In this document: positions 2,410 through 18,228 of the stretch, in pieces
Layout of the letters: each line of letters begins with the position of its first letter
Position numbering within the stretch: the first letter of the stretch is position 1
DNA from: an uncultured Acidobacteriaceae bacterium
GTDB lineage: Bacteria; Acidobacteriota; Terriglobia; Terriglobales; Acidobacteriaceae
NCBI GenBank assembly: GCA_963842095.1
Contig: CAWJEY010000007.1
Coordinates: 137,602 to 201,601 of the forward strand
DNA: 64,000 nt
Reading direction: 5' to 3'
Translations under genes and position numbers: made by a program
Notes under the pieces: model-generated
What the model saw: the letters and a program-made list of their open reading frames with translations, nothing else
Database searches by the model: none
Told to the model about the DNA's origin: nothing

Positions 2410-3785
2410 GTATTCCCCGCCCACTCGAGCCGCCGCCGGTGGAGATGCCGGCGCAGCCTCACGGCCGGTTCGGCGGGGGCGCGGGGCCCCGGCTGTTGCT
2501 GCTGGCCGGCGTCGGCCTGGCGTGGATTATTCCCTCGTTGTGGAATCGGACATTTCTGTGGGCGATGCTGCTCTGGGATTTGCTTTTGTTGCTGGCTTTC
2601 CTGGGGGATTGGCTGCAGCTTCCGCACCCTAAGCAAATTAGCGTGCGCCGGGAATGGCGCAGTCCACTTTCGATTGGAGTGGCTGCATCGGTGAACCTCT
2701 CGGTGGCGAATCAATCTTCAGTTGATGTGTGGGTGAGCACCTACGACGAGCTGCCGCCGTCGAGCTGGCACACGGGTAAAGCTATCGTGCTGAAGGTGCT
2801 CGCGCGCGCCAGTCGGTCCGTCAATTACGAATACACGCCGGGCATGAGGGGCGACTTGCGCACCGGAAAGGTCTTTCTGCGCTACTGGTCTCGATTCCTG
2901 ATGGCGGAGCGCTGGGCGATTGCCGATCTCGGGCAAACAGTTCGCGTCTATCCTAATTTTGAACACGCACGCAAGCATTCCGTCTATCTCGCACGCAGCC
3001 GCCAGATCGAGTTGCAGATGCGAATGATGCGCCTGCGCGGGATGGGTTCCGACTTCGAGAGTCTGCGGGAACATCGGGAAGGGGATGAACTGCGCAACGT
3101 GTGCTGGACGGCGACGGCGCGCCGCGGGAAACTAGTTTCGAAGACTTTTCGCGTGGAACGCAGCCAGGCAGTTTGGATCGTTCTCGATTGCGGCCGCCTG
3201 ATGCGCGCCCGCACCGACGGCTACAGCAAACTCGATCGCGCAGTGGATGCGGCTCTCTGCCTGGCGCAACTCGCCATCTATTCGGGAGACCGCGTTGGCT
3301 TGCTAGCATACGGTCGGACGGTGAAACAAAGAGTGCTCCCCGGTCGCGGCGCGGCTCAGATGCGACACATCGTGGAGCAACTTGCTGTAGTCCGCGAGGA
3401 AGTACCGGAAGCTGACCATGTGCGCGCTGCCGCCAGCCTGCTCACTTTGCAGAAACAACGCGGGCTGATCATCTGGATTTCCGATCTGGCCGAGAGCGCG
3501 ATGACTCCCGAGGTAATTGAAGCTGCCGGGCAAATGCTTTCGCGGCATCTGCTGCTGTTCATTGCGATTGCCCAACCAGAACTGAAGCTGCGGGCCCGGC
3601 AAAGCCCCGCATCTGCGTCAGCCATGTATGAAGTGGTCGCGGCGCAGGAGATGGTTTACCGCCGCGAATTGCTTCTGGGACGTTTGCGCGAGCGCGGGGC
3701 GCTCTGCATGGAAGTGGAACCGTCTCGCATCTCGGCGGCGGTGCTCAACCAGTACCTTACGGTGAAAGAACGGAATCTGGTGTAG
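2406..3785 (+). CDS. DUF58 (vWA-like) protein, MoxR partner
   Basis: Two N-terminal TM helices followed by DUF58-type motifs (SDFESLREHREGDELRNVCW, VWIVLDCGRLM). The GTGA start/stop overlap with moxR at 2406-2409 suggests translational coupling. Confidence 0.85.
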   Translation: MSIPRPLEPPPVEMPAQPHGRFGGGAGPRLLLLAGVGLAWIIPSLWNRTFLWAMLLWDLLLLLAFLGDWLQLPHPKQISVRREWRSPLSIGVAASVNLSVANQSSVDVWVSTYDELPPSSWHTGKAIVLKVLARASRSVNYEYTPGMRGDLRTGKVFLRYWSRFLMAERWAIADLGQTVRVYPNFEHARKHSVYLARSRQIELQMRMMRLRGMGSDFESLREHREGDELRNVCWTATARRGKLVSKTFRVERSQAVWIVLDCGRLMRARTDGYSKLDRAVDAALCLAQLAIYSGDRVGLLAYGRTVKQRVLPGRGAAQMRHIVEQLAVVREEVPEADHVRAAASLLTLQKQRGLIIWISDLAESAMTPEVIEAAGQMLSRHLLLFIAIAQPELKLRARQSPASASAMYEVVAAQEMVYRRELLLGRLRERGALCMEVEPSRISAAVLNQYLTVKERNLV

Positions 3786-10100: not shown

Positions 10101-11531
10101 GCCGGCGCGGACGTGATTACGATCAGCGGTCACGATGGCGGCACGGGAGCATCGCCGCTCACTTCCATCAAAAACACTGGCCTGCCCTGGGAAATTGGTT
10201 TGCGGGATGCACACACTGCGCTGGTGCGCGCCGGCTTGCGCGCCCGCGTCAGATTGCGTGTGGATGGCGGCCTCAAGTTTGCCCGAGACGTGGTTGTCGC
10301 CGCTGTGCTGGGCGCTGAAGAATTCGGCTTTGGAACCGCCGCGCTGCTGGCCATCGGCTGCGTCATGGCCCGGCAGTGCCACCTCAACACTTGTCCCGTC
10401 GGCATCGCGACCCAGGATGAAACCTTGCGCGCGCGCTTTGCCGGCAATCCGGAGATGGTGGAAACATTTTTTCGCGCGCTGGCAGCCGACGTCCGCCAAC
10501 TGCTGGCGGAAATGGGTGCAGGATCGATCGACGAAGTCCTGGGCGCGATTGACCGGCTGCGTCCGCGCTCGCCGGAAGCGGAACAAAGCGTAGCTTCGCT
10601 CTTGCAACCCATATCTAATCCGCCCGCGCAATTTCCCTGTCCTCATGAGGACAGCAGCGCACTTCACGTCGAACTGAATCGCGTGGTGGACGATCTGGAG
10701 TCGCTCTCCATCCGTCCCTATCGCTTTGAAATCACCAATGAGGATCGAGCCGTGGGCGCGCACTTCAGCGGCGAAGTGCTGCGCCGGATCAGGCCTTCGT
10801 TCGGACTTTCGAATCTGGAGATGAGTGGCGTTGATTGCGAGTTTGTGGGCACCGCGGGCCAGAGCTTCGGCGCTTTCTTGATTTCCGGCGCGAACTTCCG
10901 TCTGACGGGGGAGGCAAACGACTACGTCGGCAAAGGCCTGTGCGGGGGCAGCATTGCCATTACCGCGCAAGCGGAAGCATCGCAACGCGGCGACGTTCTG
11001 GTGGGAAATACCGTGCTCTACGGCGCAACCTCCGGCGAGTTATTTGTCGCGGGGCGTGCGGGAGAACGGTTTGCGGTCCGCAACAGCGGCGCTCTCGCAG
11101 TGGTCGAGGGCGTGGGCCGCCACGGATGCGAATACATGACCGCCGGCGTTGTCGTCATTCTCGGTTCGGCGGGCGAGAATCTGGGAGCGGGGATGACCGG
11201 CGGCCTGACGTATTTGTCGCGCGCCGACGTCAATGACTACTTTAACGACGACCATCTAAACCGCGACTCTGTGCGCTTTGCGACGCTCGAACCGCAGGAA
11301 GAGCAATGGCTGCGCCGCATTCTTCGCCGGCACATGCAGCTCACGGGCAGCCCCCGCGCCGCCGAACTGCTCGCCTGCTCCGCTCTGCCGCTGAATCGGG
11401 TTGAGCCTCTTGCTCCTCCCTGTCCGATCGAAGATACGTGGGCGTCGATTCTGGCGCGCCTCGCCGCCGAGGAAGCGCGCAGTTACGGACGCGACAAACT
11501 TCTCACTTCCGAAAGACCCGTCGTGCAATGA
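7122..11531 (+). CDS. gltB: glutamate synthase large subunit (GOGAT)
   Basis: 1469 aa. The N-terminal amidotransferase domain has Cys after a short propeptide (HDACGVGFIAQ). FMN and 3Fe-4S regions are present (LISPPPHHDIYSIEDL, CHLNTCPVGIATQ), as is the C-terminal GXGXG beta-helix. No gltD gene is adjacent. Confidence 0.95.
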   Translation: MGESRLTFSADHDACGVGFIAQLGGPASHGLVERGLGALKRLAHRGGVDADGRSGDGAGLLVGLPKAFFRKAAGADGIDLPHQFGVAMVFLQPGQEAVAEDAIRDAVAKFDLSFAGWRKVPTDPSILGPRSRDSLPTVRQCFLAPRSSPFGLRSSSRSSSTRSSSGLESSDFELQLYRLRQELEVNSDSGYYCSLSSRTIVYKGLLTPEQLAPFYLDLNDPEFASAFVVFHQRYSTNTQPSWSLAQPFRFVAHNGEINTISSNRRWFQARGATLRNQLRLPVRAKLLQPGMSDSASFDNALEALVRRGSSIAESALRLVPPAWEHDEHLDPGLRQFLAGSAPEQEPWDGPAALIFTDGLFIGAKLDRNGLRPLRYTLTSDGLLIVGSEVGITDLSGKQVVERQRLGPGEMLIADPASGTFFRPSEVARLVPTEDGRSSLTVITPKHQAEPTILDANRLLAAFGWTEDQFRLLFHPLAEQGQEALWSMGDDTPPAFLSTLPRPLWDYCKQRFAQVTNPPIDPLRENHVMSLDAYLGKNAKLSSPVLDVGQMDVIADALSPMPCIDFTFEAAGGVEAALEVLARIRDEARTMAIHAGAILLTDRGLSDRRAALPALLAASTVWRAMTETGAWKVPLIVETGQVVDTHHVALLIAVGASAVHPHLAMSMAARADVNGPARYRTGVEKGLRKVLARMGISTISSYRNGQLFETIGLDAEVCEEFFADAGRTLGGKQLRDLLQDCITCHASGFGSAAAEFRDSGLYRFRHNGEQHASSPELVRRMHRYIKSPTPQNHAALSVLSEERKNVAVRDLLDVRPAQPLSLEEVESEVSLLSRFSTQAMSLGAISPEAHQTLAIAMNRLGGRSNTGEGGEDPSIYYDRPEANNRVKQVASARFGVTAEYLVHADEIEIKMAQGSKPGEGGQLPSSKVTPYIARLRHAVPGTSLISPPPHHDIYSIEDLAQLIYDLRAVNPNARIGVKLVSSSGVGVIATGVAKAGADVITISGHDGGTGASPLTSIKNTGLPWEIGLRDAHTALVRAGLRARVRLRVDGGLKFARDVVVAAVLGAEEFGFGTAALLAIGCVMARQCHLNTCPVGIATQDETLRARFAGNPEMVETFFRALAADVRQLLAEMGAGSIDEVLGAIDRLRPRSPEAEQSVASLLQPISNPPAQFPCPHEDSSALHVELNRVVDDLESLSIRPYRFEITNEDRAVGAHFSGEVLRRIRPSFGLSNLEMSGVDCEFVGTAGQSFGAFLISGANFRLTGEANDYVGKGLCGGSIAITAQAEASQRGDVLVGNTVLYGATSGELFVAGRAGERFAVRNSGALAVVEGVGRHGCEYMTAGVVVILGSAGENLGAGMTGGLTYLSRADVNDYFNDDHLNRDSVRFATLEPQEEQWLRRILRRHMQLTGSPRAAELLACSALPLNRVEPLAPPCPIEDTWASILARLAAEEARSYGRDKLLTSERPVVQ

Positions 11532-11607
11532 GCCGGCTCGCCGGCCGGGCCAGGGCCCGCCGAAACCACATCGAAGCGAAGTTCGCTATAATCTGCTAAC
11601 CAACTGC

Positions 11608-12519
11608 ATGGATTTCGATCAGCTCATCACATTTCTTGAAGTCGCCCGGCAAGGCAGTTTTTCGCGTGCCGGCGAGAAAGTCTTCCGCTCGCAATCGGCG
11701 GTCAGCGCACAGATTCGCCAACTAGAGCAGGAATACGGCGATCGCCTCCTGGACCGCTCGGGTAAAACTGTTAAGTTGACCCCCGCCGGACAGGTCTTCC
11801 ACGAATACGCGTTGCGCATGAAGAAGCTGCGCGACGAATCGCTGGTGGCCGTGGCCGACCACGGCCATACCCCGCGCGGCACACTCCTCGTCGGAGCCAA
11901 CGAAGCCACGTGCCTGTATGTTCTGCCAGAAGTCTTCGGAGAATATTGCCGCAAGTATCCCGATGTTCAGATCAGCATCTATCGCAATTTCACCTACAAG
12001 ATTGTCGAAAAACTGGAGAATGGATCTCTCGATGTGGGCGTGCTCAGCCTGCCGGTTCAGTCTGCGAGCTTGAAGGTTCAGGCTATTTACCGCGACCGGT
12101 TGATGCTGATGGTGAGCCCCAAGAATCCTTTGGCCAAGCTGAAATCGGCGCACATCAGCGACGTGGTGAAACACCCTCTGCTGCTCCCCAAGACCGGTCA
12201 CACGCGCAGGTTGCTGGATAAGCTGTTCCGCGAATACAACACCGAGCTGAAGGTCAGAATGGAGCTGCCCAGCATCGGAATGATCAAGAGCTTCGTGGCC
12301 GCCGATCTTGGCATTTCGCTCATCAGCGCGGCCTTCGCGCGCGACGAAGTCGCGGCCGGCCGGGTGAAGCTGGTTGAACTGGAAGGCCCTGAACTGTGGC
12401 GCGAACTCGGCCTTGCCTATCGACGCGACCGCACGCTCTCAGTCGCCACGAAGACATTCGTCAGCGTGGTGCGGCAGCTCTCCGACTATCTTAAGAAAAC
12501 GGATCCTCCATCGCACTGA
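11608..12519 (+). CDS. LysR-family transcriptional regulator
   Basis: The HTH region MDFDQLITFLEVARQGSFSRAGEKVFRSQSAVSAQIRQLE starts at the ATG at 11608. The track ORF start at 11401 overlaps the gltB 3' end. Confidence 0.9.
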   Translation: MDFDQLITFLEVARQGSFSRAGEKVFRSQSAVSAQIRQLEQEYGDRLLDRSGKTVKLTPAGQVFHEYALRMKKLRDESLVAVADHGHTPRGTLLVGANEATCLYVLPEVFGEYCRKYPDVQISIYRNFTYKIVEKLENGSLDVGVLSLPVQSASLKVQAIYRDRLMLMVSPKNPLAKLKSAHISDVVKHPLLLPKTGHTRRLLDKLFREYNTELKVRMELPSIGMIKSFVAADLGISLISAAFARDEVAAGRVKLVELEGPELWRELGLAYRRDRTLSVATKTFVSVVRQLSDYLKKTDPPSH

Positions 12520-12525
12520 GTGTTT

Positions 12526-13254
12526 TCATGCGTCCGCTTCCGGGGGATTAGTCAGCGACTGGGGCTGCGGCTGAATAATGTGCAGTCCGCACTCCGTCTT
12601 CGCCGATCCTGCCCAGCGCCCTGCCCGTGGGTCTTCTCCCGGCCGCACCGCCCGCGTGCAGTGCGTGCACCCGATGCTGGGGTAATTGCGTTCATGCAGC
12701 GCGTTGCAGGGCACATCATTCTCGCGGATGTATTGCCACACCTGCTTTGAACTCCAGTCGGCGAGCGGATTAATCTTCACCAGGGCGAATTTCTTGTCCC
12801 ACTCGACTTTACCTGCGGACGCGCGGGCCACGGTCTGATCGCGGCGAATGCTGGTGATCCACGCTCGCAGTTCGCCCAGCTTGCGCCGCAGCGGCTCGAC
12901 CTTTCGCAGATAGCAGCATTGATCCGGGTTACGCTGCCAGAGCGCCGGGCCATGGACCCGCTCTTGTTCCTCGGGCGAGTTCAGCGGAAACACTTTTTCG
13001 ATCGTGATGCTGTATTTCTGCTCGACCTGGTCCATCAGGTTGTAGGTTTCGGGAAACAAGAATTCCGTATCCAGCGTGAAGAGGCGGAAATTCTGGCGCA
13101 CGCGGGAAGCGATGTCGATCAGCACCATGCCCTCTGCGCCGAAAGCGGAGGAGATCGCCACCGCTTCCCCGAAAGTATCGAACGCCCATTCGAGGACCCG
13201 CTCGGGTTTCCAGGCCTCCGCGGCGATCTGCAAATTGCCAACTTCTTCTTTCAT
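12526..13254 (-). CDS. cysH: phosphoadenylyl-sulfate / adenylyl-sulfate reductase (thioredoxin-dependent)
   Basis: PAPS-reductase fold. The C-terminal Cys motifs (IGCTHCTR and ECGLH) suggest the Fe-S-containing APS-reductase type. Its ATG overlaps the cobA stop (ATGA at 13251-13254). Confidence 0.9.
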   Translation of the reverse strand: MKEEVGNLQIAAEAWKPERVLEWAFDTFGEAVAISSAFGAEGMVLIDIASRVRQNFRLFTLDTEFLFPETYNLMDQVEQKYSITIEKVFPLNSPEEQERVHGPALWQRNPDQCCYLRKVEPLRRKLGELRAWITSIRRDQTVARASAGKVEWDKKFALVKINPLADWSSKQVWQYIRENDVPCNALHERNYPSIGCTHCTRAVRPGEDPRAGRWAGSAKTECGLHIIQPQPQSLTNPPEADA

Positions 13255-14081
13255 GCTAACGGCTCCTCTTGTCTCAAACTAAAATCATCAACCACCCTTC
13301 GACTTCGCTCAGGGCAGGCAGAGGACACAGAGTCACATAGGGGATAGCCCGTTGCTTCCTCGACCAAACTACGTTCGGCGAACCTCACTACCTCGCCAAC
13401 CACCAGCAGTGTTGGAGATGCGAGCGTCGGCGACCGGTGAAGATCCGAAACCGTGGTGCGGTGGATGCACTGCTCGGGTGTTGTGGCCCGCGAAATAATT
13501 GCGCAGGGGGTTTCCGCTGCGAATCCGGCGGCCTTGAGCCTGCTGGAAAGCTCGACATAGTTGTGCCCGGGCATGTAGATGACAAGCGTCGACTGGGATG
13601 CGGCAAATTCACTCCAACCCGCATCGTCGTTGCCGGAAGCGCGATGGCCAGCCGTCAGCACCAGAGTTGAAGATACTTTCCGATGTGTCAGCGGAATACC
13701 GGCCGCGGCGGCGGCTCCCAGGGCTGAGGTCACGCCGGGAACAATCTCATACTCGATGTCCGCCCGTCGCAGAGCCTCGACCTCTTCTCCGGCCCGGCCA
13801 AAGATCAGCGGGTCTCCGCTCTTCAGCCGGATCACTTGCAATCCTGACGCAGCCCGCGTCACCATCAGAAAATTAATCTCTTCCCGCCGGATGGTCTTGC
13901 CCCCGCAGCGCTTGCCCACGTTCTGAACTTCGGCAGATGGAGAAATCAGTTTCAGAATTTCCGGCGTGACCAGATCGTCATGAAGCACAACGTCGGCCGC
14001 CCGCAGCAGTCGCAGAGCCTTCACTGTCAGCAACTCCGGGTCGCCCGGTCGTGCGCCCACCAGATACACTTTGCCGTTCAT
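13251..14081 (-). CDS. cobA: uroporphyrinogen-III C-methyltransferase (SUMT)
   Basis: VYLVGARPGDPELLTVKALRLLRAADVVLHDDLV and GKRCGG motifs. The last ~35 codons run through a dispersed repeat (see findings). Confidence 0.9.
   Translation of the reverse strand: MNGKVYLVGARPGDPELLTVKALRLLRAADVVLHDDLVTPEILKLISPSAEVQNVGKRCGGKTIRREEINFLMVTRAASGLQVIRLKSGDPLIFGRAGEEVEALRRADIEYEIVPGVTSALGAAAAAGIPLTHRKVSSTLVLTAGHRASGNDDAGWSEFAASQSTLVIYMPGHNYVELSSRLKAAGFAAETPCAIISRATTPEQCIHRTTVSDLHRSPTLASPTLLVVGEVVRFAERSLVEEATGYPLCDSVSSACPERSRRVVDDFSLRQEEPLA
13294..13319. repeat. dispersed 26-nt repeat, copy 1 (inverted relative to copy 2 at 48485-48510)
   Basis: The reverse complement of acccttcgacttcgctcagggcaggc matches gcctgccctgagcgaagccgaagggt at 25 of 26 positions in my hand alignment. 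Confidence 0.8.
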
Positions 14082-14749
14082 GCCGTAACCCTCCTGTCGT
14101 CCTCGTTCTTCGCCAACTCTTCCTTCGCGGATTCTTCCCCCGTCGCCTGCTTCTTCGTTAAATCTTCCGCCAACGCCACCTTCAGGGCCTCGCGGCTCGC
14201 CAGCGAGTGCAGCAGATCGCTCTTCCGTTGCGGGTCAAGATCGCTGGCCAGCACAAGCTTTCGTGTCTCTCCCAGTTCTGCGACCCATCGGGCATATCCC
14301 GGACCAAATTGCCGCTCAAGCTGTTGCCGAAGCTTTTGCGCCAGCGAAGGACTCTGCCCATTGGTTGAAATTGCAATCTGGAGATCGCCCCGGCGCACCA
14401 CCGCGGGATAGTAAAAGTCGCAATACTCGGGAACGTCCACTATGTTGCACAAGATTCCACGCCGCCGCGCTTCGCCGTATATCGAAGCATTGAGGCCGCG
14501 CGACGCCGTGGCTACCACGGCCAGAAACGTTCCATCGAGATCGCTGGCGACGAACGCGCGAAGTTCGAGCGTGATCTTCCCGGCGTTCGCCCATGCATGC
14601 ACTGCCTCGGTTGCTTCCAGGGCCACCACGTGCACTCGCGCACCGGTGTCGATGAGGCCGCCAATTTTAGGTTCGCCGACCTTGCCGGCGCCAACCACCA
14701 GGCAGCGTTTGCCTTCGAGCTTCACGAACATTGGAAATAAGCTGCTCAT
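14078..14749 (-). CDS. precorrin-2 dehydrogenase / sirohydrochlorin ferrochelatase (siroheme synthase N-terminal-domain type)
   Basis: Rossmann motif MFVKLEGKRCLVVGAGKVG. The ATG at 14749 leaves a 16-nt gap after the sir stop, whereas the longer track ORF overlaps sir. There is a 4-nt overlap with cobA. Confidence 0.8.
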   Translation of the reverse strand: MSSLFPMFVKLEGKRCLVVGAGKVGEPKIGGLIDTGARVHVVALEATEAVHAWANAGKITLELRAFVASDLDGTFLAVVATASRGLNASIYGEARRRGILCNIVDVPEYCDFYYPAVVRRGDLQIAISTNGQSPSLAQKLRQQLERQFGPGYARWVAELGETRKLVLASDLDPQRKSDLLHSLASREALKVALAEDLTKKQATGEESAKEELAKNEDDRRVTA

Positions 14750-14765
14750 AGTTTTCTCCAACTGC

Positions 14766-16484
14766 TCAACCTTCGACGCCGCTCGGCACACGTCCCTCAG
14801 GCAGATCGCGGGCAACCGCCTCGACGAATTCCCCGGCCAGGAATCCGCGCAAGTCGGTATCGCTGTGACGAGCAAAAAAACGGCGCAGATTCTCGCCCGG
14901 CTGCCCATCGGCGAGGTAGCGGCGCAACAGGCGCTCGATGGCTTCCGGAACCTCGGTCGCTGGGCAGCGATACCCCACCGGCCTCGCGATGGCCTGATTC
15001 AGGCCGAGCGCTCCGCCCAGGCAGAAGTAGTAGGCATCCACCATTTGCCCGTTCACCTTGATCTTCTTGCCCTCGATTCCGATGTCGGCGATCCAGTGTT
15101 GTCCGCAACTGTTCGGGCAACCGGTAACGTGGAGCTTCAGGTGCTGATCGAAGCCGGGCAAGCGCTCTTCGAGTTCCTCCACCAGCCAGCGGGAGAAGCT
15201 TTTCGTCTCGGTGATGGCAAGCTTGCAAAACTCCGTGCCGCTGCAGGCAACGGCCCCGCGCCAGAACGGCGACCCACTGACCGGCAGCCCGATCGCGCCC
15301 AGCTCTCTCGCCAACTCGTCCGCCTGAAGACGCGGAACGTTGACGATCAGCAGGTTCTGCATGTTGGTAGTGCGCAATTCACCGCTGGCGAATCGCTCCG
15401 CCAGATCGGCGGCCGCATGCATTTGTTCGGGGGTAATCCTCCCGCGCAGAACCGTGGCCCCCACATAGCAGTAGCCGGGCTGCTTCTGCGCATGGATTCC
15501 GATGTGGTCGCGATAGACGTCTGCCGGTGGTTGCTCCGGCTCGGCAGGATCGAGTTGAAATCCGATCCGCCTCTCTAGCTCTCGTTGGAAGTCCTGCGGC
15601 GTCCAACCATGCCGCAGGAAGAGAAACTTCAGCCGCGCCCGTTCGCGGTGTTCGCGCAATTGGTCGGAGTCGCGAAACAACTCGGCGACTCCCTTGATCA
15701 CCGGCAGAACCTGGTTCCAGCGCACGAAGGCGTTCAGCGGAGCACCCAGGTAAGGCTCAGTGGAAAGTCCACCGCCCACGCGCAACGCGAAACCAATCTC
15801 AGGTTTTCCCTGAACCACCCGCTCGTTTGCCGTCAGGCCAACGTCGTTAATCTCTGGATAAGGGCACCAGACGCGGCATCCGGTGATGGAGATCTTGAAC
15901 TTGCGCGGCAAGTTATAGAACTCCGCGTTTCCCGCCAGCATCCTGTCTGCTTCCAGCGCGAGCGGCGAAGCGTCGCATATCTCGTCCGCATCCACGCCGG
16001 CAACAGGGCAGCCCGTAATGTTCCGAGTTACATCGCCGCAGGAACCAGTCGTGTTCAGGCCGACGCGCCAGAGTTCCTCCAGCACTTCGGGCAGCGTCTC
16101 GATCGTGACCCAGTGCAACTGAATATTCTGCCGCACGGTGAGATCGGCGATGCCGCGGGCGTATCGACTGGTCAGGCCGGCGATGGCTCGTAGTTGGTTC
16201 GATCGCAATAAGCCGTTCGGAATTCGAATCCGCACCATGAAGAACGGCAGCGCCAGCCCTTGGCCGTCTTTCCCGCCAACAACGCCTGCTCCGTCGCCCT
16301 GCGTGTAAACTCCCCACCAGCGGAAATACGTGCCAATCCACTCTGGCGGAATCGAATGAAAGCCTTCTCGCGCGAAGCGGCGAATCTCGGAGAGACCGTC
16401 CCACGGATTCATCGCGCGCTTCAGGCGTTCCGACTTTTGCGCTTTGGTTTCTTTGCCCGAACTGGCCATAAACGGACTTGCCAT
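14766..16484 (-). CDS. assimilatory sulfite reductase hemoprotein (ferredoxin-type nitrite/sulfite reductase family)
   Basis: 572 aa. Siroheme/4Fe-4S cysteine motifs are present (ACSGTEFCKLAITETK, VTGCPNSCGQH). It is the first gene of the operon that also carries the siroheme synthesis genes and cysH. Confidence 0.85.
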   Translation of the reverse strand: MASPFMASSGKETKAQKSERLKRAMNPWDGLSEIRRFAREGFHSIPPEWIGTYFRWWGVYTQGDGAGVVGGKDGQGLALPFFMVRIRIPNGLLRSNQLRAIAGLTSRYARGIADLTVRQNIQLHWVTIETLPEVLEELWRVGLNTTGSCGDVTRNITGCPVAGVDADEICDASPLALEADRMLAGNAEFYNLPRKFKISITGCRVWCPYPEINDVGLTANERVVQGKPEIGFALRVGGGLSTEPYLGAPLNAFVRWNQVLPVIKGVAELFRDSDQLREHRERARLKFLFLRHGWTPQDFQRELERRIGFQLDPAEPEQPPADVYRDHIGIHAQKQPGYCYVGATVLRGRITPEQMHAAADLAERFASGELRTTNMQNLLIVNVPRLQADELARELGAIGLPVSGSPFWRGAVACSGTEFCKLAITETKSFSRWLVEELEERLPGFDQHLKLHVTGCPNSCGQHWIADIGIEGKKIKVNGQMVDAYYFCLGGALGLNQAIARPVGYRCPATEVPEAIERLLRRYLADGQPGENLRRFFARHSDTDLRGFLAGEFVEAVARDLPEGRVPSGVEG

Positions 16485-16528
16485 AAAATTGATTTCCCCA
16501 AACTTGTTTACCCGGCTGATTTGCCCAC

Positions 16529-16564
16529 AAAAAAACCCACCGCCAGATGCTCTCTGGCGGTGGG
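16529..16564 (-). terminator. intrinsic terminator in the sir leader
   Basis: On the minus strand, CCCACCGCCAGA-gagca-TCTGGCGGTGGG forms a perfect 12-bp stem, followed by TTTTTTT. It lies 44 nt upstream of the sir ATG. Confidence 0.8.
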
Positions 16565-16593
16565 TGATAAGTGCTGATGATGCTACGAAACTC

Positions 16594-16686
16594 TTAAGTC
16601 AGCAGCCTCCCTGCGCCAGAACACACGTATGCACAACAACAACATGCACACATACTGGTCTGGCGAAGATTGCTGAAACTGGTCAT
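16594..16686 (-). CDS. candidate Cys-rich leader peptide (30 aa, below the ORF-track cutoff)
   Basis: My hand translation gives MTSFSNLRQTSMCACCCCAYVCSGAGRLLT*. All 6 Cys codons are TGT. There is no SD, but the ATG lies 9 nt after a -10-like hexamer. Confidence 0.5.
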   Translation of the reverse strand: MTSFSNLRQTSMCACCCCAYVCSGAGRLLT

Positions 16687-16695
16687 GCTTTTTGG

Positions 16696-16725
16696 ATACT
16701 AGGCTGAGCCTGGCGAACGGGTCAA
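16696..16725 (-). promoter_or_regulatory. sigma70-like promoter for the sir leader
   Basis: On the minus strand, TTGACC (16725-16720), an 18-nt spacer, then TAGTAT (16701-16696). The predicted TSS is about 16689, 3 nt before the uORF ATG. Confidence 0.5.
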
Positions 16726-16827
16726 GTTACTGCCGGCTTTATTGGATGAATAATTTCGATCCGGCGCATCAGAAATTTTGGTCGGCGGGCAAGGCCTCGC
16801 CGGAGGGCCCTCCATCGGACGATGATG

Positions 16828-17076
16828 TCAGGCCGCGCTTCTGCCTCGCCCTCTCACACTCTGCAGAACCGTTGCAGGAAGCTGCAGCACCCGGACTCGC
16901 GAATCTTTTTTCGTTGTGACGTGTACTGCGATGCCATCGGCTTCCGGGAACGGGTCCGAAACAACATCAAACTCCTCACCGTAAAGGCGAACCCGCCCAG
17001 AGGTGGCATATCCAAGATGTCGAACGCGGGCACAGACTTCTGATAGTGAGGGAGGTTCAATATGATGACTGGTCAT
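16828..17076 (-). CDS. hypothetical small protein (82 aa)
   Basis: This is the internal start MTSHHIEPPSLSEV... of the 143-aa track ORF. The longer version runs through the tRNA gene. The SD is weak and I recognise no family. Confidence 0.3.
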   Translation of the reverse strand: MTSHHIEPPSLSEVCARVRHLGYATSGRVRLYGEEFDVVSDPFPEADGIAVHVTTKKDSRVRVLQLPATVLQSVRGRGRSAA

Positions 17077-17180
17077 GATAAGACCATTATAACCTTCCCA
17101 CTGAGAGCGTGCCGACATCAGTTTAACAGCCTCTGAGGCGGCTGACCGGGGTCTCGCTACCGCGTAAGCTGTTGAAAAGA

Positions 17181-17255
17181 TGGAGCGGGAGACGGGGATC
17201 GAACCCGTGACATCCAGCTTGGGAAGCTGGCGTTCTACCGCTGAACTACTCCCGC
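17181..17255 (-). tRNA. tRNA-Gly (anticodon CCC), CCA encoded
   Basis: The reverse complement is GCGGGAGTAGTTCAGCGGTAGAACGCCAGCTTCCCAAGCTGGATGTCACGGGTTCGATCCCCGTCTCCCGCTCCA. It folds as a cloverleaf: 7-bp acceptor stem, D arm GTTC/GAAC, anticodon stem CCAGC/GCTGG with loop TTCCCAA, and T arm ACGGG/CCCGT with loop TTCGATC. Confidence 0.92.
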
Positions 17256-17302
17256 TCACTGGCCCTGCGCACTGGCCTGCTCACTGGCCTGCTCACTGGC
17301 TA
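17256..17302. repeat. 12-nt tandem repeat (about 4 units) abutting the 5' end of tRNA-Gly
   Basis: tcactggccctgcg / cactggcctgc / tcactggcctgc / tcactggct, read directly from the sequence. Confidence 0.75.
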
Positions 17303-17418
17303 AGATGGGCAGGTATCCGCCCGAGCCAACCAAAGTCTAGCACTCCCCGCCGCGGGAAACAATCTGCTGGCGATCGCGCGCGCCGCAGTCGTCGTGCACC
17401 GGTAGCCTGTTAGACTCC

Positions 17419-18228
17419 ATGAAGAGAACAATTGTGTCTTCCACGTCCAGCAGAAAACACGCAGGAGGTGCGGCCAGCGATCAGGTCGTAGTGCCCGAGC
17501 CTTCATTCTCGGAGCGGGCGCGGACCTTAGTGTACCTGGGCCGCATTGGCAGCCTCTCGACTCTTTCCCGCAAGCAGCCGGGCTTCCCCTTCGGATCCGT
17601 GATGCCCTACGCGCTGGACGGACGCGGGCGTCCCATCTTCCTCATCAGCACCATGGCGATGCACACCCAGAACCTGCAAGCGGATCAGCGCGCCAGCCTG
17701 CTCGTGACCCAGCCGGACGCCAGCGGCGATCCGCTGGGCGCCTCCAGAGTCACAGTGATGGGAAATGTTCTGACCATCCCGGATCCCGAGATCGCCGACG
17801 CGCGCCAGCTTTACCTGGAGCGTTACGCCAACAGCAAGTACTGGGTGGACTTTGAAGACTTTTCTTTTTATCGAATGGATGTGCTGGATGTTTACTACGT
17901 GGGAGGCTTCGGGGTCATGGGCTGGGTGACGGCGCCGTACTACGGCCTGGCGCAACCCGATCCCCTGGCCGATGCCGCGGCCGGGATTATTGAACACATG
18001 AATGCCGACCACAAGGATGCGGTCATCCTGCTGGCGCGCGTGTTTGCCGGCATCGAGTGTCAGGAGGCGGCGATGACGGCCGTGGACCGGCTCGGTTTTC
18101 AGGTGCGCCTGAAAACCTCAGACGGGATAAAGGGTGCTCGCATCGCGTTCCTGCAGGAAGTGAGCAATCCAGTGGAAACCAGAAAAATCCTAGTGGAGAT
18201 GGTGCAGCAGGCGCGGCAACGGCCTTGA
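17419..18228 (+). CDS. HugZ-like / pyridoxamine-5'-phosphate-oxidase-fold protein with a DUF2470-type C-terminal domain
   Basis: The N-terminal half (FPFGSVMPYALDGRGRPIFLISTMAMHTQNL...SLLV) has a split-barrel FMN-binding-like fold. The C-terminal half carries HMNADHKDAV. Confidence 0.75.
   Translation: MKRTIVSSTSSRKHAGGAASDQVVVPEPSFSERARTLVYLGRIGSLSTLSRKQPGFPFGSVMPYALDGRGRPIFLISTMAMHTQNLQADQRASLLVTQPDASGDPLGASRVTVMGNVLTIPDPEIADARQLYLERYANSKYWVDFEDFSFYRMDVLDVYYVGGFGVMGWVTAPYYGLAQPDPLADAAAGIIEHMNADHKDAVILLARVFAGIECQEAAMTAVDRLGFQVRLKTSDGIKGARIAFLQEVSNPVETRKILVEMVQQARQRP

Follow-up and report, generated by a model that had tools for sequence, protein, structure and literature searches.

The window, a 64,000-nucleotide stretch of acidobacterial DNA, carries on its minus strand a sulfite-reductase/sirohaem/cysH operon headed by sir, the rest of which spans 12526..14908 (Table 1). 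Upstream of sir, the -35 (16725-16720) and -10 (16701-16696) elements of a sigma-70-type promoter are followed after 9 nt by the ATG (16686) of a 30-codon upstream open reading frame (uORF), whose stop codon occupies 16596-16594. A gap of 29 nt separates this stop from a hairpin with a U-tract, and a gap of 44 nt separates the U-tract from the sir ATG (16484). Six of the 30 codons (13, 15-18 and 22) encode cysteine, including a CCCC run, and all six are UGU. The promoter, uORF, stop codon and six TGT codons had been proposed in an earlier sequence-only reading of the locus, and all of their coordinates were confirmed on the minus strand. That reading had also held TGC to be the commoner cysteine codon nearby, in agreement with the 146 TGC and 34 TGT codons counted in the long ORFs of the window, and had argued that scant room was left for a separate sir promoter; the interval from the terminator to sir contained no promoter-like site. 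When all of the window was scanned for ORFs with cysteine runs, no second intergenic case appeared, the other hits being off-frames of long ORFs. Exact-sequence look-ups returned no record for either the 30-residue leader peptide or the Sir protein of the window, and the uORF has not been annotated as a gene.

Table 1. Features of the sir leader and operon in the window
Feature	Position	Strand	Basis
AT-rich conserved box ATCGAAATTATTCATCCAA	16742..16760	-	Alignment A1 consensus ATCnAAAnTATnnATCnAA, columns about 26-45
Sigma-70-type promoter, TTGACC / 18 nt / TAGTAT	16696..16725	-	Sequence and promoter scan
Predicted near-leaderless 30-codon leader ORF, MTSFSNLRQTSMCACCCCAYVCSGAGRLLT and stop	16594..16686	-	ORF list and conservation
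Putative regulatory Cys codons 13, 15-18, 22	16621..16650	-	Codon positions; core TGTTGTTGT invariant family-wide
Segment 1, CUUCGCCAGA, predicted 5' arm of the 1:2 anti-antiterminator enclosing the Cys codons	16659..16668	-	Minimum free energy (MFE) folds
Segment 2, UCUGGCGCAGGG, codons S-G-A-G; predicted partner, segment 1 or segment 3	16609..16620	-	Folds, covariation
Middle hairpin, UGCUGA ... UCAGCA, across the uORF stop codon	16572..16604	-	Enclosed by the 2:3 helix
Intrinsic terminator: segment 3 ACCCACCGCCAGA, 5-nt loop, segment 4 UCUGGCGGUGGGU, U-tract	16529..16565	-	Terminator scan, covariation
sir, NirA-family sirohaem/4Fe-4S sulfite reductase	14766..16484	-	Pfam NIR_SIR and NIR_SIR_ferr; NCBIfam NirA-family matches below equivalog cut-offs
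Sirohaem synthase N-domain	14078-14908	-	Pfam
Uroporphyrinogen-III methyltransferase, TP_methylase	13251-14081	-	Pfam
cysH, PAPS/APS reductase, PAPS_reduct	12526-13254	-	Pfam; NCBIfam phosphoadenylyl-sulfate reductase, 276.9 bits against a cut-off of 154

In an alignment of 78 leaders (alignment A1), the TTGAC and TAnnAT motifs of the promoter were at least 90% conserved, as were the ATG and stop columns of the uORF. The AT-rich box, which lies about 16 nt 5' of the -35 element and contains two ATCnAA half-sites 13 nt apart, is possibly a transcription-factor site or an UP-like element. A LysR-family gene neighbours the locus and, together with this box, hints at additional regulators.

The four alternating copies of CGCCAGA and UCUGGCG described in the sequence-only reading were located, counting from the AUG, at offsets 21, 66, about 127 and 139, corresponding to 16665-59, 16620-14 and the two arms of the terminator. 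The terminator hairpin was likewise present, with a stem spanning 16565-16535, a loop of 5 nt and a U-run extending to 16529; counting the first U, the stem comprises 13 pairs, compared with the 12 bp given previously. The 211-nt leader folded with a free energy of -79.2 kcal/mol (z = -3.8 relative to dinucleotide shuffles), and the alternative structures were of comparable energy, at -29.1, -25.2 and -27.1 kcal/mol, of which the first is the 1:2 hairpin and the last the terminator hairpin. In the predicted antiterminator (2:3) of the window, a base helix of 6+3 bp encloses the middle hairpin. The Cys tract pairs inside the 1:2 hairpin.

Ribosome-masking folds were performed with a mask of -18..+14 around the A-site, a footprint size that is general knowledge. 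The 2:3 helix appeared when the A-site was placed on Cys codons 13-18 and was absent when it was placed on codon 22 or on the stop codon, as expected from the proposal that a ribosome stalled at the Cys codons would free segment 2. At thermodynamic equilibrium the terminator outcompeted the antiterminator in every masking scenario, and control must therefore be kinetic. The attenuator model thus requires that folding be kinetic and co-transcriptional and that the ribosome and RNA polymerase be coupled.

Of 80 sir loci in related genomes of Terriglobales-type Acidobacteriota, 77 had the promoter, uORF, complementary segments and terminator ahead of the gene, and the pattern of uORF, segment 2 and segment 3 was also found in at least 120 soil and peat metagenome contigs; the whole arrangement is kept in nearly 200 independent sequences from genomes and metagenomes. 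The uORFs of this family are predicted to be near-leaderless, are 28-31 codons long and contain 5-11 Cys codons. Of 65 leaders in which both ATG and stop were aligned, 64 kept the reading frame across seven lengths, and the distance from segment 2 to the stop codon was 23 nt in 115 of 118 leaders. The gap between the -10 element and the ATG was 9-10 nt in 52 of 71 genome leaders and 9-11 nt in 83 of 110 metagenome leaders. This spacing is compatible with a uORF start that carries a leader of 0-3 nt and no Shine-Dalgarno sequence, and we assume that initiation without a Shine-Dalgarno sequence is efficient in the Acidobacteria carrying the leader.

These data bear on the alternative that the uORF is a chance (TGT)n microsatellite beside the terminator of an upstream tRNA-Gly or small-ORF unit. 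A tRNA-Gly(CCC) gene (17181-17255) and an 82-codon ORF do lie upstream of the leader on the same strand. However, this upstream ORF was found in only 3 of the 80 sir loci in which the leader was so widely conserved, the leader has its own conserved promoter, and the element is associated with different downstream cysteine genes. Further, at one locus, L136, the upstream gene has a separate terminator of its own. The microsatellite interpretation was dropped; the conservation data effectively refute it, and we accord it next to no probability. The leader tracks cysteine-pathway genes, not the upstream gene.

Within the uORF, the N-terminal third is variable, while the C-terminal SGAGRLLT sequence and the CxCCCC core are conserved in amino acids. 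Such conservation, together with the narrow range of uORF length, is what would be seen if the uORF encoded a functional Cys-rich micropeptide (metal- or redox-binding, or the precursor of a modified peptide), with an ordinary partial terminator behind it and no sensing of cysteine. However, the conserved C-terminal codons overlap segment 2 and the middle hairpin and show the same conservation at their synonymous sites, a pattern that selection on the peptide alone does not predict. The core TGTTGTTGT was invariant even at synonymous sites. Third codon positions had entropies (H) of 0.2-0.8 within helices compared with 1.0-1.4 where unpaired, and in segment 2 the synonymous sites engaged in pairs had H of 0.3-0.8 compared with 1.42 at the synonymous site in the internal loop. 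The freely varying N-terminal third also argues against selection for a peptide, as does the behaviour of paralogous leaders, which retain the helices and differ in their peptide tails (RRFKG, VQEIVS and RRGI). Given, in addition, the specific association of the leader with cysteine and sulfur assimilation genes and with tRNA-Cys, a micropeptide function is very unlikely. The codon usage of the leaders was distinctive, TGT accounting for 62% of their Cys codons compared with 19% in the genes of the window and 10% in sir genes.

Covariation across the family was evaluated with explicit structures and per-sequence folds in place of a consensus fold. RNAalifold applied to the full 78-sequence alignment recovered the terminator alone, because indels in loops and spacers break the alignment of the other helices. 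In the terminator, 94.5% of cells were paired and eight pairs showed compensatory change, a result matched by none of 500 shuffles, a statistic that is inflated by kinship among the sequences. Most pairs of the core helices carry no covariation signal, because their sequence varies too little. The 2:3 helix was paired in 88.7% of cells, compared with 34-47% in slid controls, and contained five pairs with compensatory change, including UA/AU and CG/UA exchanges, one column of which sits in the terminator loop. The middle hairpin was paired in 81% of cells, with one pair varying between U-A, U-G and C-G. Paralogous leaders keep a hairpin in this middle position with unrelated sequences, and they keep the 2:3 helix as well. 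When folded individually, 72 of 78 full leaders adopted the 1:2 and 3:4 structures, and 76 of 78 nascent, ribosome-masked leaders adopted 2:3 as the MFE structure.

The 1:2 pairing was less uniform. In the register of the window it was paired in 61.6% of cells family-wide, and the register differs between clades; projected onto all sequences this register was weakly supported, and per-sequence folds with a shuffle control were used in its place. In these folds segment 2 was paired upstream in 73 of 78 leaders compared with 63% of shuffles, and native leaders were 5.5 kcal/mol more stable. Segment 1 appears to be the weakest component of the attenuator model, given the degree of pairing in the window's register and the frequency with which shuffled upstream sequence still pairs with segment 2. 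Of the 1:2 / 2:3 / 3:4 layout put forward in the sequence-only reading, the terminator and the 2:3 helix are supported by covariation, and the 2:3 helix also by the masking folds; the 1:2 register depends on the clade.

The primary sequences of segments 2, 3 and 4 are more invariant than base pairing alone requires. This unusual invariance could point to an RNA switch that binds a metabolite or protein (for example O-acetylserine, sulfide or a regulatory protein), with the ORF being incidental, and the hints of extra regulators given by the conserved pre-promoter box and the LysR-family gene would be in keeping with it. However, the fixed spacing of the ATG to the -10 element and of the stop codon to segment 2, the near-universal retention of the frame and the invariant in-frame Cys codons argue for translation. 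Moreover, no conserved multi-helix pocket was evident beyond simple alternative hairpins, and a permissive cmscan search of positions 16000-17500 against Rfam 15 (E up to 10) identified only the tRNA, with nothing better than E = 2 over the leader. We therefore regard a ligand-binding switch as extremely unlikely.

The leader was not confined to sir. Leaders of the same architecture and divergent sequence preceded cysG-cobA-cysH, cobA-cysH, cysH-ridA, cysK (TIGR01139, 465 bits), rhodanese and, in one case, tRNA-Cys, giving seven kinds of downstream context, among which cysS never occurred. Further cases of a leader before tRNA-Cys were sought through orthologues of the genes flanking L136 (a histidine kinase and an outer-membrane barrel protein); none was found in contigs with retrievable DNA, and synteny was not conserved. 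These contexts raise the tentative possibility of a phylum-specific "Cys ribulon" in Terriglobales-type Acidobacteria, in which copies of one modular leaderless poly-Cys switch might govern the majority of the steps that assimilate sulfate and make cysteine (rhodanese, cysK, cysH, sir and the sirohaem genes), and in at least one lineage tRNA-Cys too.

The same Cys-sensing uORF might instead act mainly at the level of translation, through occlusion of the sir ribosome-binding site as in Ms5788A, or through Rho or mRNA stability, with termination of minor importance. The sole poly-Cys leaderless sORF to have been studied experimentally works translationally (10.1101/834739). In that mycobacterial element the Cys tract sequesters a downstream Shine-Dalgarno sequence, and a conserved terminator had not been found among the Actinobacteria. 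In contrast, virtually every one of the nearly 200 leaders carries a canonical terminator with a GC-rich stem of 12-15 bp and T4-T9, which a purely translational mechanism would not need. No sequestration of the mycobacterial type was found in the window, where the 44-nt gap separates the U-tract from the ATG and the SD-like GGGGA motif of sir is unpaired, outside every predicted helix. Further, one copy of the leader precedes a tRNA gene, where translational control has no meaning. A mainly translational or Rho-dependent mode of action is therefore unlikely. At many of the related loci, just a few nucleotides lie between the U-tract and the estimated sir start, so that a steric effect on initiation, and hence an additional translational effect, is conceivable where the two adjoin.

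Collectively, the sequence, conservation and folding data make it highly probable that the leader is a ribosome-mediated transcription attenuator that senses Cys-tRNA(Cys) and gates the sulfite-reductase/sirohaem/cysH operon. For this attenuator we infer the transcription start site, translation of the uORF, ribosome stalling, termination and the response to cysteine. The RNA would start 0 to a few nucleotides 5' of the AUG, and the 30-codon ORF would be translated without a Shine-Dalgarno sequence. When cysteine is replete, the ribosome would pass the UGU run and reach the stop codon, where it would cover or abut segment 2 and melt the middle hairpin. Behind this ribosome segment 1 would re-pair with segment 2, leaving segment 3 free for segment 4, and the resulting hairpin and U-tract would stop transcription before sir. 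When Cys-tRNA is short, the ribosome would stall with its A-site at Cys codons 13-18, covering segment 1 and the Cys tract. Segment 2 would then be exposed and bind newly made segment 3 before segment 4 is made, so that the terminator would be blocked and RNA polymerase would read into sir.

This proposed architecture shares its main elements with the trp, his, leu, thr, pheA and ilv attenuators of E. coli and Salmonella, namely a short translated leader ORF rich in codons for the end product. As in the trp/his/leu type, four segments are predicted to form mutually exclusive 1:2, 2:3 and 3:4 structures, the terminator lies just 5' of the first gene, the stop codon is sited where a ribosome finishing translation would mask segment 2, and the terminator is stabler than the antiterminator, hence kinetic control. 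Unlike these systems, the acidobacterial leader uses Cys codons, which are placed in the loop between segments 1 and 2 and not inside segment 1, and it contains an extra conserved hairpin nested in 2:3. Its ORF is also predicted to begin no more than about 3 nt from the 5' end of the transcript, without a Shine-Dalgarno sequence, and it belongs to a different phylum, the Acidobacteriota.

Cysteine-rich leaders have been reported in other phyla. Cys-rich leader peptides were predicted earlier in Actinobacteria (PMC1262725), and polycysteine leaderless sORFs forming a "Cys ribulon" were described in mycobacteria (Canestrari et al. 2020, bioRxiv 10.1101/834739). The mycobacterial sORFs, whose transcripts begin at the A or G of the start codon, resemble the acidobacterial leader, which is predicted to be near-leaderless, in being Cys-run ORFs (two or more consecutive Cys codons) at the head of cysteine and sulfur operons, with several loci of one design per genome that would make up a ribosome-mediated regulon. 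In contrast, the acidobacterial leader conserves both a canonical terminator and an antiterminator, has no sequence similarity to the mycobacterial sORFs and occurs in another phylum. In Rhodobacterales, the uORFC-8-2 motif combines a Cys-Cys uORF with a terminator upstream of cysS, the Cys-tRNA synthetase gene (Brewer et al. 2021, PMC8632094). This motif too is predicted to be a ribosome-mediated attenuator, with an intrinsic terminator and a uORF in which two tandem Cys codons, mostly UGC, stand near positions 14-15; its consensus has two stems (PMC8632094). The acidobacterial leaders differ in having 5-11 Cys codons that are mostly UGU, in preceding biosynthetic operons rather than cysS alone, and in lying outside the Alphaproteobacteria; judged by the published description of uORFC-8-2, sequence and structure are unrelated. 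The statement in the sequence-only reading that such uORFs were reported only in mycobacteria thus needs correction, given the actinobacterial predictions and the Rhodobacterales cysS uORF. That reading was aware of no such description for Acidobacteria-type sir/cysH operons, and literature searches on acidobacterial leader-peptide attenuation and on sulfite reductase leader peptides returned nothing relevant. Very probably, the leader is a cysteine-sensing attenuator of Acidobacteria that had not been described before. Judged from its sequence and predicted structure, and with strong comparative support, it would form a new family among the classical ribosome-mediated attenuators.

To our knowledge, cysteine has been a conspicuous gap among the amino-acid operons under leader-peptide transcription attenuation. 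The 2020 mycobacterial study noted that uORF-mediated cysteine attenuation had not been described before, and its own mechanism is translational (10.1101/834739). The acidobacterial leader would be a clear and widespread case of terminator/antiterminator control keyed to Cys codons, and the branch that it would regulate is the supply of sulfide for cysteine synthesis. Acidobacteriota are abundant in soil, and we know of almost no acidobacterial cis-regulatory RNAs with assigned functions. The leader offers a sequence signature with which sulfur-assimilation regulons can readily be annotated in soil metagenomes, and it points to a regulatory use of leaderless or near-leaderless translation outside the Actinobacteria. 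It also raises the question why the sensor has fixed UGU, a codon decoded by wobble. If the proposed mechanism is true, the tRNA-Cys leader would provide the first known example of a tRNA gene under leader-peptide attenuation, and a shortage of charged tRNA would directly raise transcription of that same tRNA.

The promoter-like pair, near-leaderless upstream ORF (uORF) and hairpin with U-run proposed by the sequence-only reading were found in place when the minus strand was re-read, the promoter also by consensus scan, as were its CGCCAGA/UCUGGCG 7-mers. The hairpin lies 29 nt beyond the stop codon, and all six uORF Cys codons are UGU. The 211-nt leader folded at -79.2 kcal/mol (z = -3.8 relative to dinucleotide-shuffled sequences), and a search of Rfam families against it gave no match. 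After sir, the operon continues with genes for a sirohaem-synthase N-domain protein and a uroporphyrinogen methyltransferase, then cysH (Pfam, NCBIfam). The sir product scored highest against ferredoxin-nitrite reductase and NirA-family models, all below cut-offs; its sulfite reductase name follows from the operon context (cysH and sirohaem genes) and the Cys leader, not from family models. For the LysR-family gene at the operon end, the best NCBIfam match was a selenium-metabolism-associated LysR model, below cut-off, with weak CysB/Cbl matches; the layout convergent with cysH recurred in at least 11 related loci with long enough flanks. Upstream of the leader, ATG 17076 opens an 82-codon ORF (region 16828-17115, minus strand) with no family match, whose -10-to-ATG spacing equals that of the Cys leader, hinting that starts lacking a Shine-Dalgarno sequence (SD) may be common in this organism.

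Features of the Cys leaders and neighbouring genes (loci labelled L are individual metagenome contigs)
Feature	Locus	Position	Strand	Basis or remark
LysR-family regulator gene	window	11401-12519	+	convergent with cysH at operon end
sir, 572-aa NIR_SIR/NIR_SIR_ferr protein	window	14766-16484	minus	Pfam; ATG 16484, 44 nt beyond U-run
Terminator hairpin, perfect, 5-nt loop, 13 pairs counting first U	window	16565-16535; U-run to 16529	minus	
30-codon ORF MTSFSNLRQTSMCACCCCAYVCSGAGRLLT	window	ATG 16686; stop 16596-16594	minus	ORF call; ATG 9 nt past -10
Promoter-like pair TTGACC / 18 nt / TAGTAT	window	16725-16720, 16701-16696	minus	sequence reading and consensus scan
Conserved AT-rich box ATCGAAATTATTCATCCAA, with ATCnAA present twice, 13 nt apart	window	16742-16760	minus	~16 nt upstream of -35
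Second promoter-like site TCGGCA / 18 nt / TATAAT	window	17115-17086	minus	9 nt before ATG 17076
Complete Cys leader	L136 (Ga0066665_10013823)	3163-3434	minus	~26 nt upstream of tRNA-Cys(GCA)
Downstream tRNA-Cys(GCA)	L136			
Downstream cysG(N)-cobA-cysH	L101, L135, L140, L174, L119, L122			
Downstream cobA-cysH	L152, L182			
Downstream cysH-ridA	L121, L124			
Downstream cysK	L193			TIGR01139, 465 bits, above cut-off
Downstream rhodanese	L117			

Conservation was examined in 80 loci with Sir relatives (72-93% identity), nearly all labelled as Acidobacteriaceae, Terriglobales or Ca. Sulfotelmatobacter MAGs. A short ORF with a Cys run, followed by a terminator, lay directly upstream of sir in 77 of them; of the remaining three, two were non-acidobacterial contigs and the third was truncated. 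From the 5' end, an alignment of 78 leaders comprised a conserved AT-rich box, a -35 TTGAC and a -10 TAnnAT, with the ATG mostly 9-10 nt past the -10. The coding part had a variable N-terminal portion, the invariant core TGTTGTTGT and then CTGGCGCGGGGAGGCTGCTGAC, which contains RNA segment 2 together with the first (5') arm of a middle hairpin. After the stop codon came the second arm of that hairpin and then a terminator that hardly varied, ACCCACCGCCAG-loop-CTGGCGGTGGGT-T(4-9). A pattern covering the Cys run and segments 2 and 3 matched at least 120 soil and peat metagenome contigs. Two Methylomirabilota-labelled contigs, L070 (2670-2880) and L072, carried sir relatives at 74% identity (longer match ~2.46 kb) and had, instead of a Cys leader, an upstream 69-aa, zinc-ribbon-like ORF with two CxxC pairs. 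Contigs L043, L075 and L051, labelled Eisenbacteria, Vulcanimicrobiota and Ca. Solibacter, carried sir 78-86% identical to acidobacterial sir, with the same leader in L043 and L051 and a truncation upstream of sir in L075; mis-binning is the probable explanation, not a wider taxonomic spread.

Reading frame, spacing and codon choice agree, and from them we infer that the leader ORF is translated. Among the 65 leaders with ATG and stop inside aligned columns, the ATG-to-stop length was a multiple of three in 64, despite seven different lengths, and segment 2 lay 23 nt from the stop codon in 115 of 118 metagenome leaders. TGT made up 62% of Cys codons in leaders, compared with 19% in window genes and 10% in sir genes; the earlier spot check that TGC is commoner in neighbouring genes held across the window's long ORFs (146:34). 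Within the core Cys run, both synonymous sites were T in 78/78 leaders. UGU is decoded by tRNA-Cys(GCA) through G-U wobble, and the fixed preference for it would suit a sensor that relies on slow decoding, although it may also have a structural reason.

The proposed pairings of segments 1-4 as anti-antiterminator (1:2), antiterminator (2:3) and terminator (3:4) were compared across the family. In the terminator, 94.5% of cells were paired, with both-sided changes at 8 of 13 pairs, and no shuffled or slid control came close; because the leaders are related, shuffle statistics overstate independence. The 2:3 helix, a 6+3 bp core with two flanking pairs, was 88.7% paired, compared with 34-47% when slid. 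Core helices were mostly uninformative for covariation because they are nearly invariant. One pair flanking the 2:3 core showed compensatory UA/AU variation (40/10), and another 2:3 pair varied among CG, UA and UG; since its 3' partner sits in the terminator loop, this supports 2:3 independently of 3:4. The middle hairpin (UGCUGA...UCAGCA) was 81% paired, with U-A, U-G and C-G variation. Third-codon positions within helices were conserved (entropy H 0.2-0.8 bits), while unpaired ones were free (H 1.0-1.4). Segment 1 is the weakest of the four: 1:2 in the window register was 61.6% paired across the family, and clades with CGCGCG in place of CGCCAGA paired in a shifted register. Segment 2 was paired upstream in 94% of native folds, compared with 63% when upstream sequence was shuffled. 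In per-sequence folds, 72 of 78 full leaders adopted 1:2 with 3:4, and 76 of 78 adopted 2:3 when the 5' part was masked and segment 4 not yet made.

Hairpin energies in the window were -29.1 (1:2), -25.2 (2:3 with the middle hairpin) and -27.1 kcal/mol (terminator). Ribosome position was modelled by masking -18 to +14 nt around the A-site, a footprint size assumed from what ribosome profiling generally shows. When one of Cys codons 13-18 of the window leader was placed in the A-site, the nascent RNA folded into 2:3; with codon 22 or the stop codon there, it did not. The comparable energies of 2:3 and 3:4, and 2:3 formation at the Cys run, agree with the competition that the sequence-only reading had expected. 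Because the terminator won at equilibrium in every masking case once segment 4 was present, the switch decision would have to be kinetic, as in the trp leader.

Among the 120 metagenome matches listed, sir lay downstream in 99, about 8 were truncated and 13 had other genes. Leaders of non-sir genes diverged in segment 1, the middle hairpin and the tail of the peptide, yet their folds had the same four-segment layout; bases of the terminator loop lengthened 2:3 to 8-10 bp in L136 and L193. The L136 leader contains a promoter, the uORF MNLDAQKTANACCACSCCCAHMSSGARRFKG, 1:2, 2:3 and 3:4 segments and a U-tract, and its gap to the tRNA gene is too short for another promoter. Here a tRNA gene would be under the control of a leader-peptide attenuator, a case seen on one contig only. 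The sequence-only reading had named a competing explanation, that the hairpin is merely the terminator of the upstream unit. This was rejected on three grounds taken together: the association with cysteine genes downstream, the lack of conservation upstream (the window's 82-codon ORF occurred in 3/80 loci) and the separate terminator of the L136 upstream gene.

The Acidobacteria leader would work like the trp/his/leu attenuators, and the sequence-level defining features of that class that were examined were also found in it, least clearly segment 1, whose register varies between clades. It resembles the mycobacterial polycysteine leaderless sORFs in its apparent leaderless start and multi-locus design, but not in their defining mechanism, translational control via a Cys-tract:Shine-Dalgarno duplex with no terminator (10.1101/834739; PMC1262725). 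The sole Cys-codon uORF described with a terminator, uORFC-8-2 of Rhodobacterales, contains only two Cys codons and acts on cysS (PMC8632094); its sequence is unrelated. The literature searched gave nothing on Acidobacteria. We class the Acidobacteria Cys leader as a putative new family in an already known type of regulator, all of its function being read from sequence; its unusual traits are the apparent SD-less initiation and the fixed UGU codon. The AT-rich box is kept across sir leaders and can also be seen in front of cysG-first leaders. Possible roles are those of an activator site or an UP-like element; either would add a further layer of regulation, a transcriptional one.
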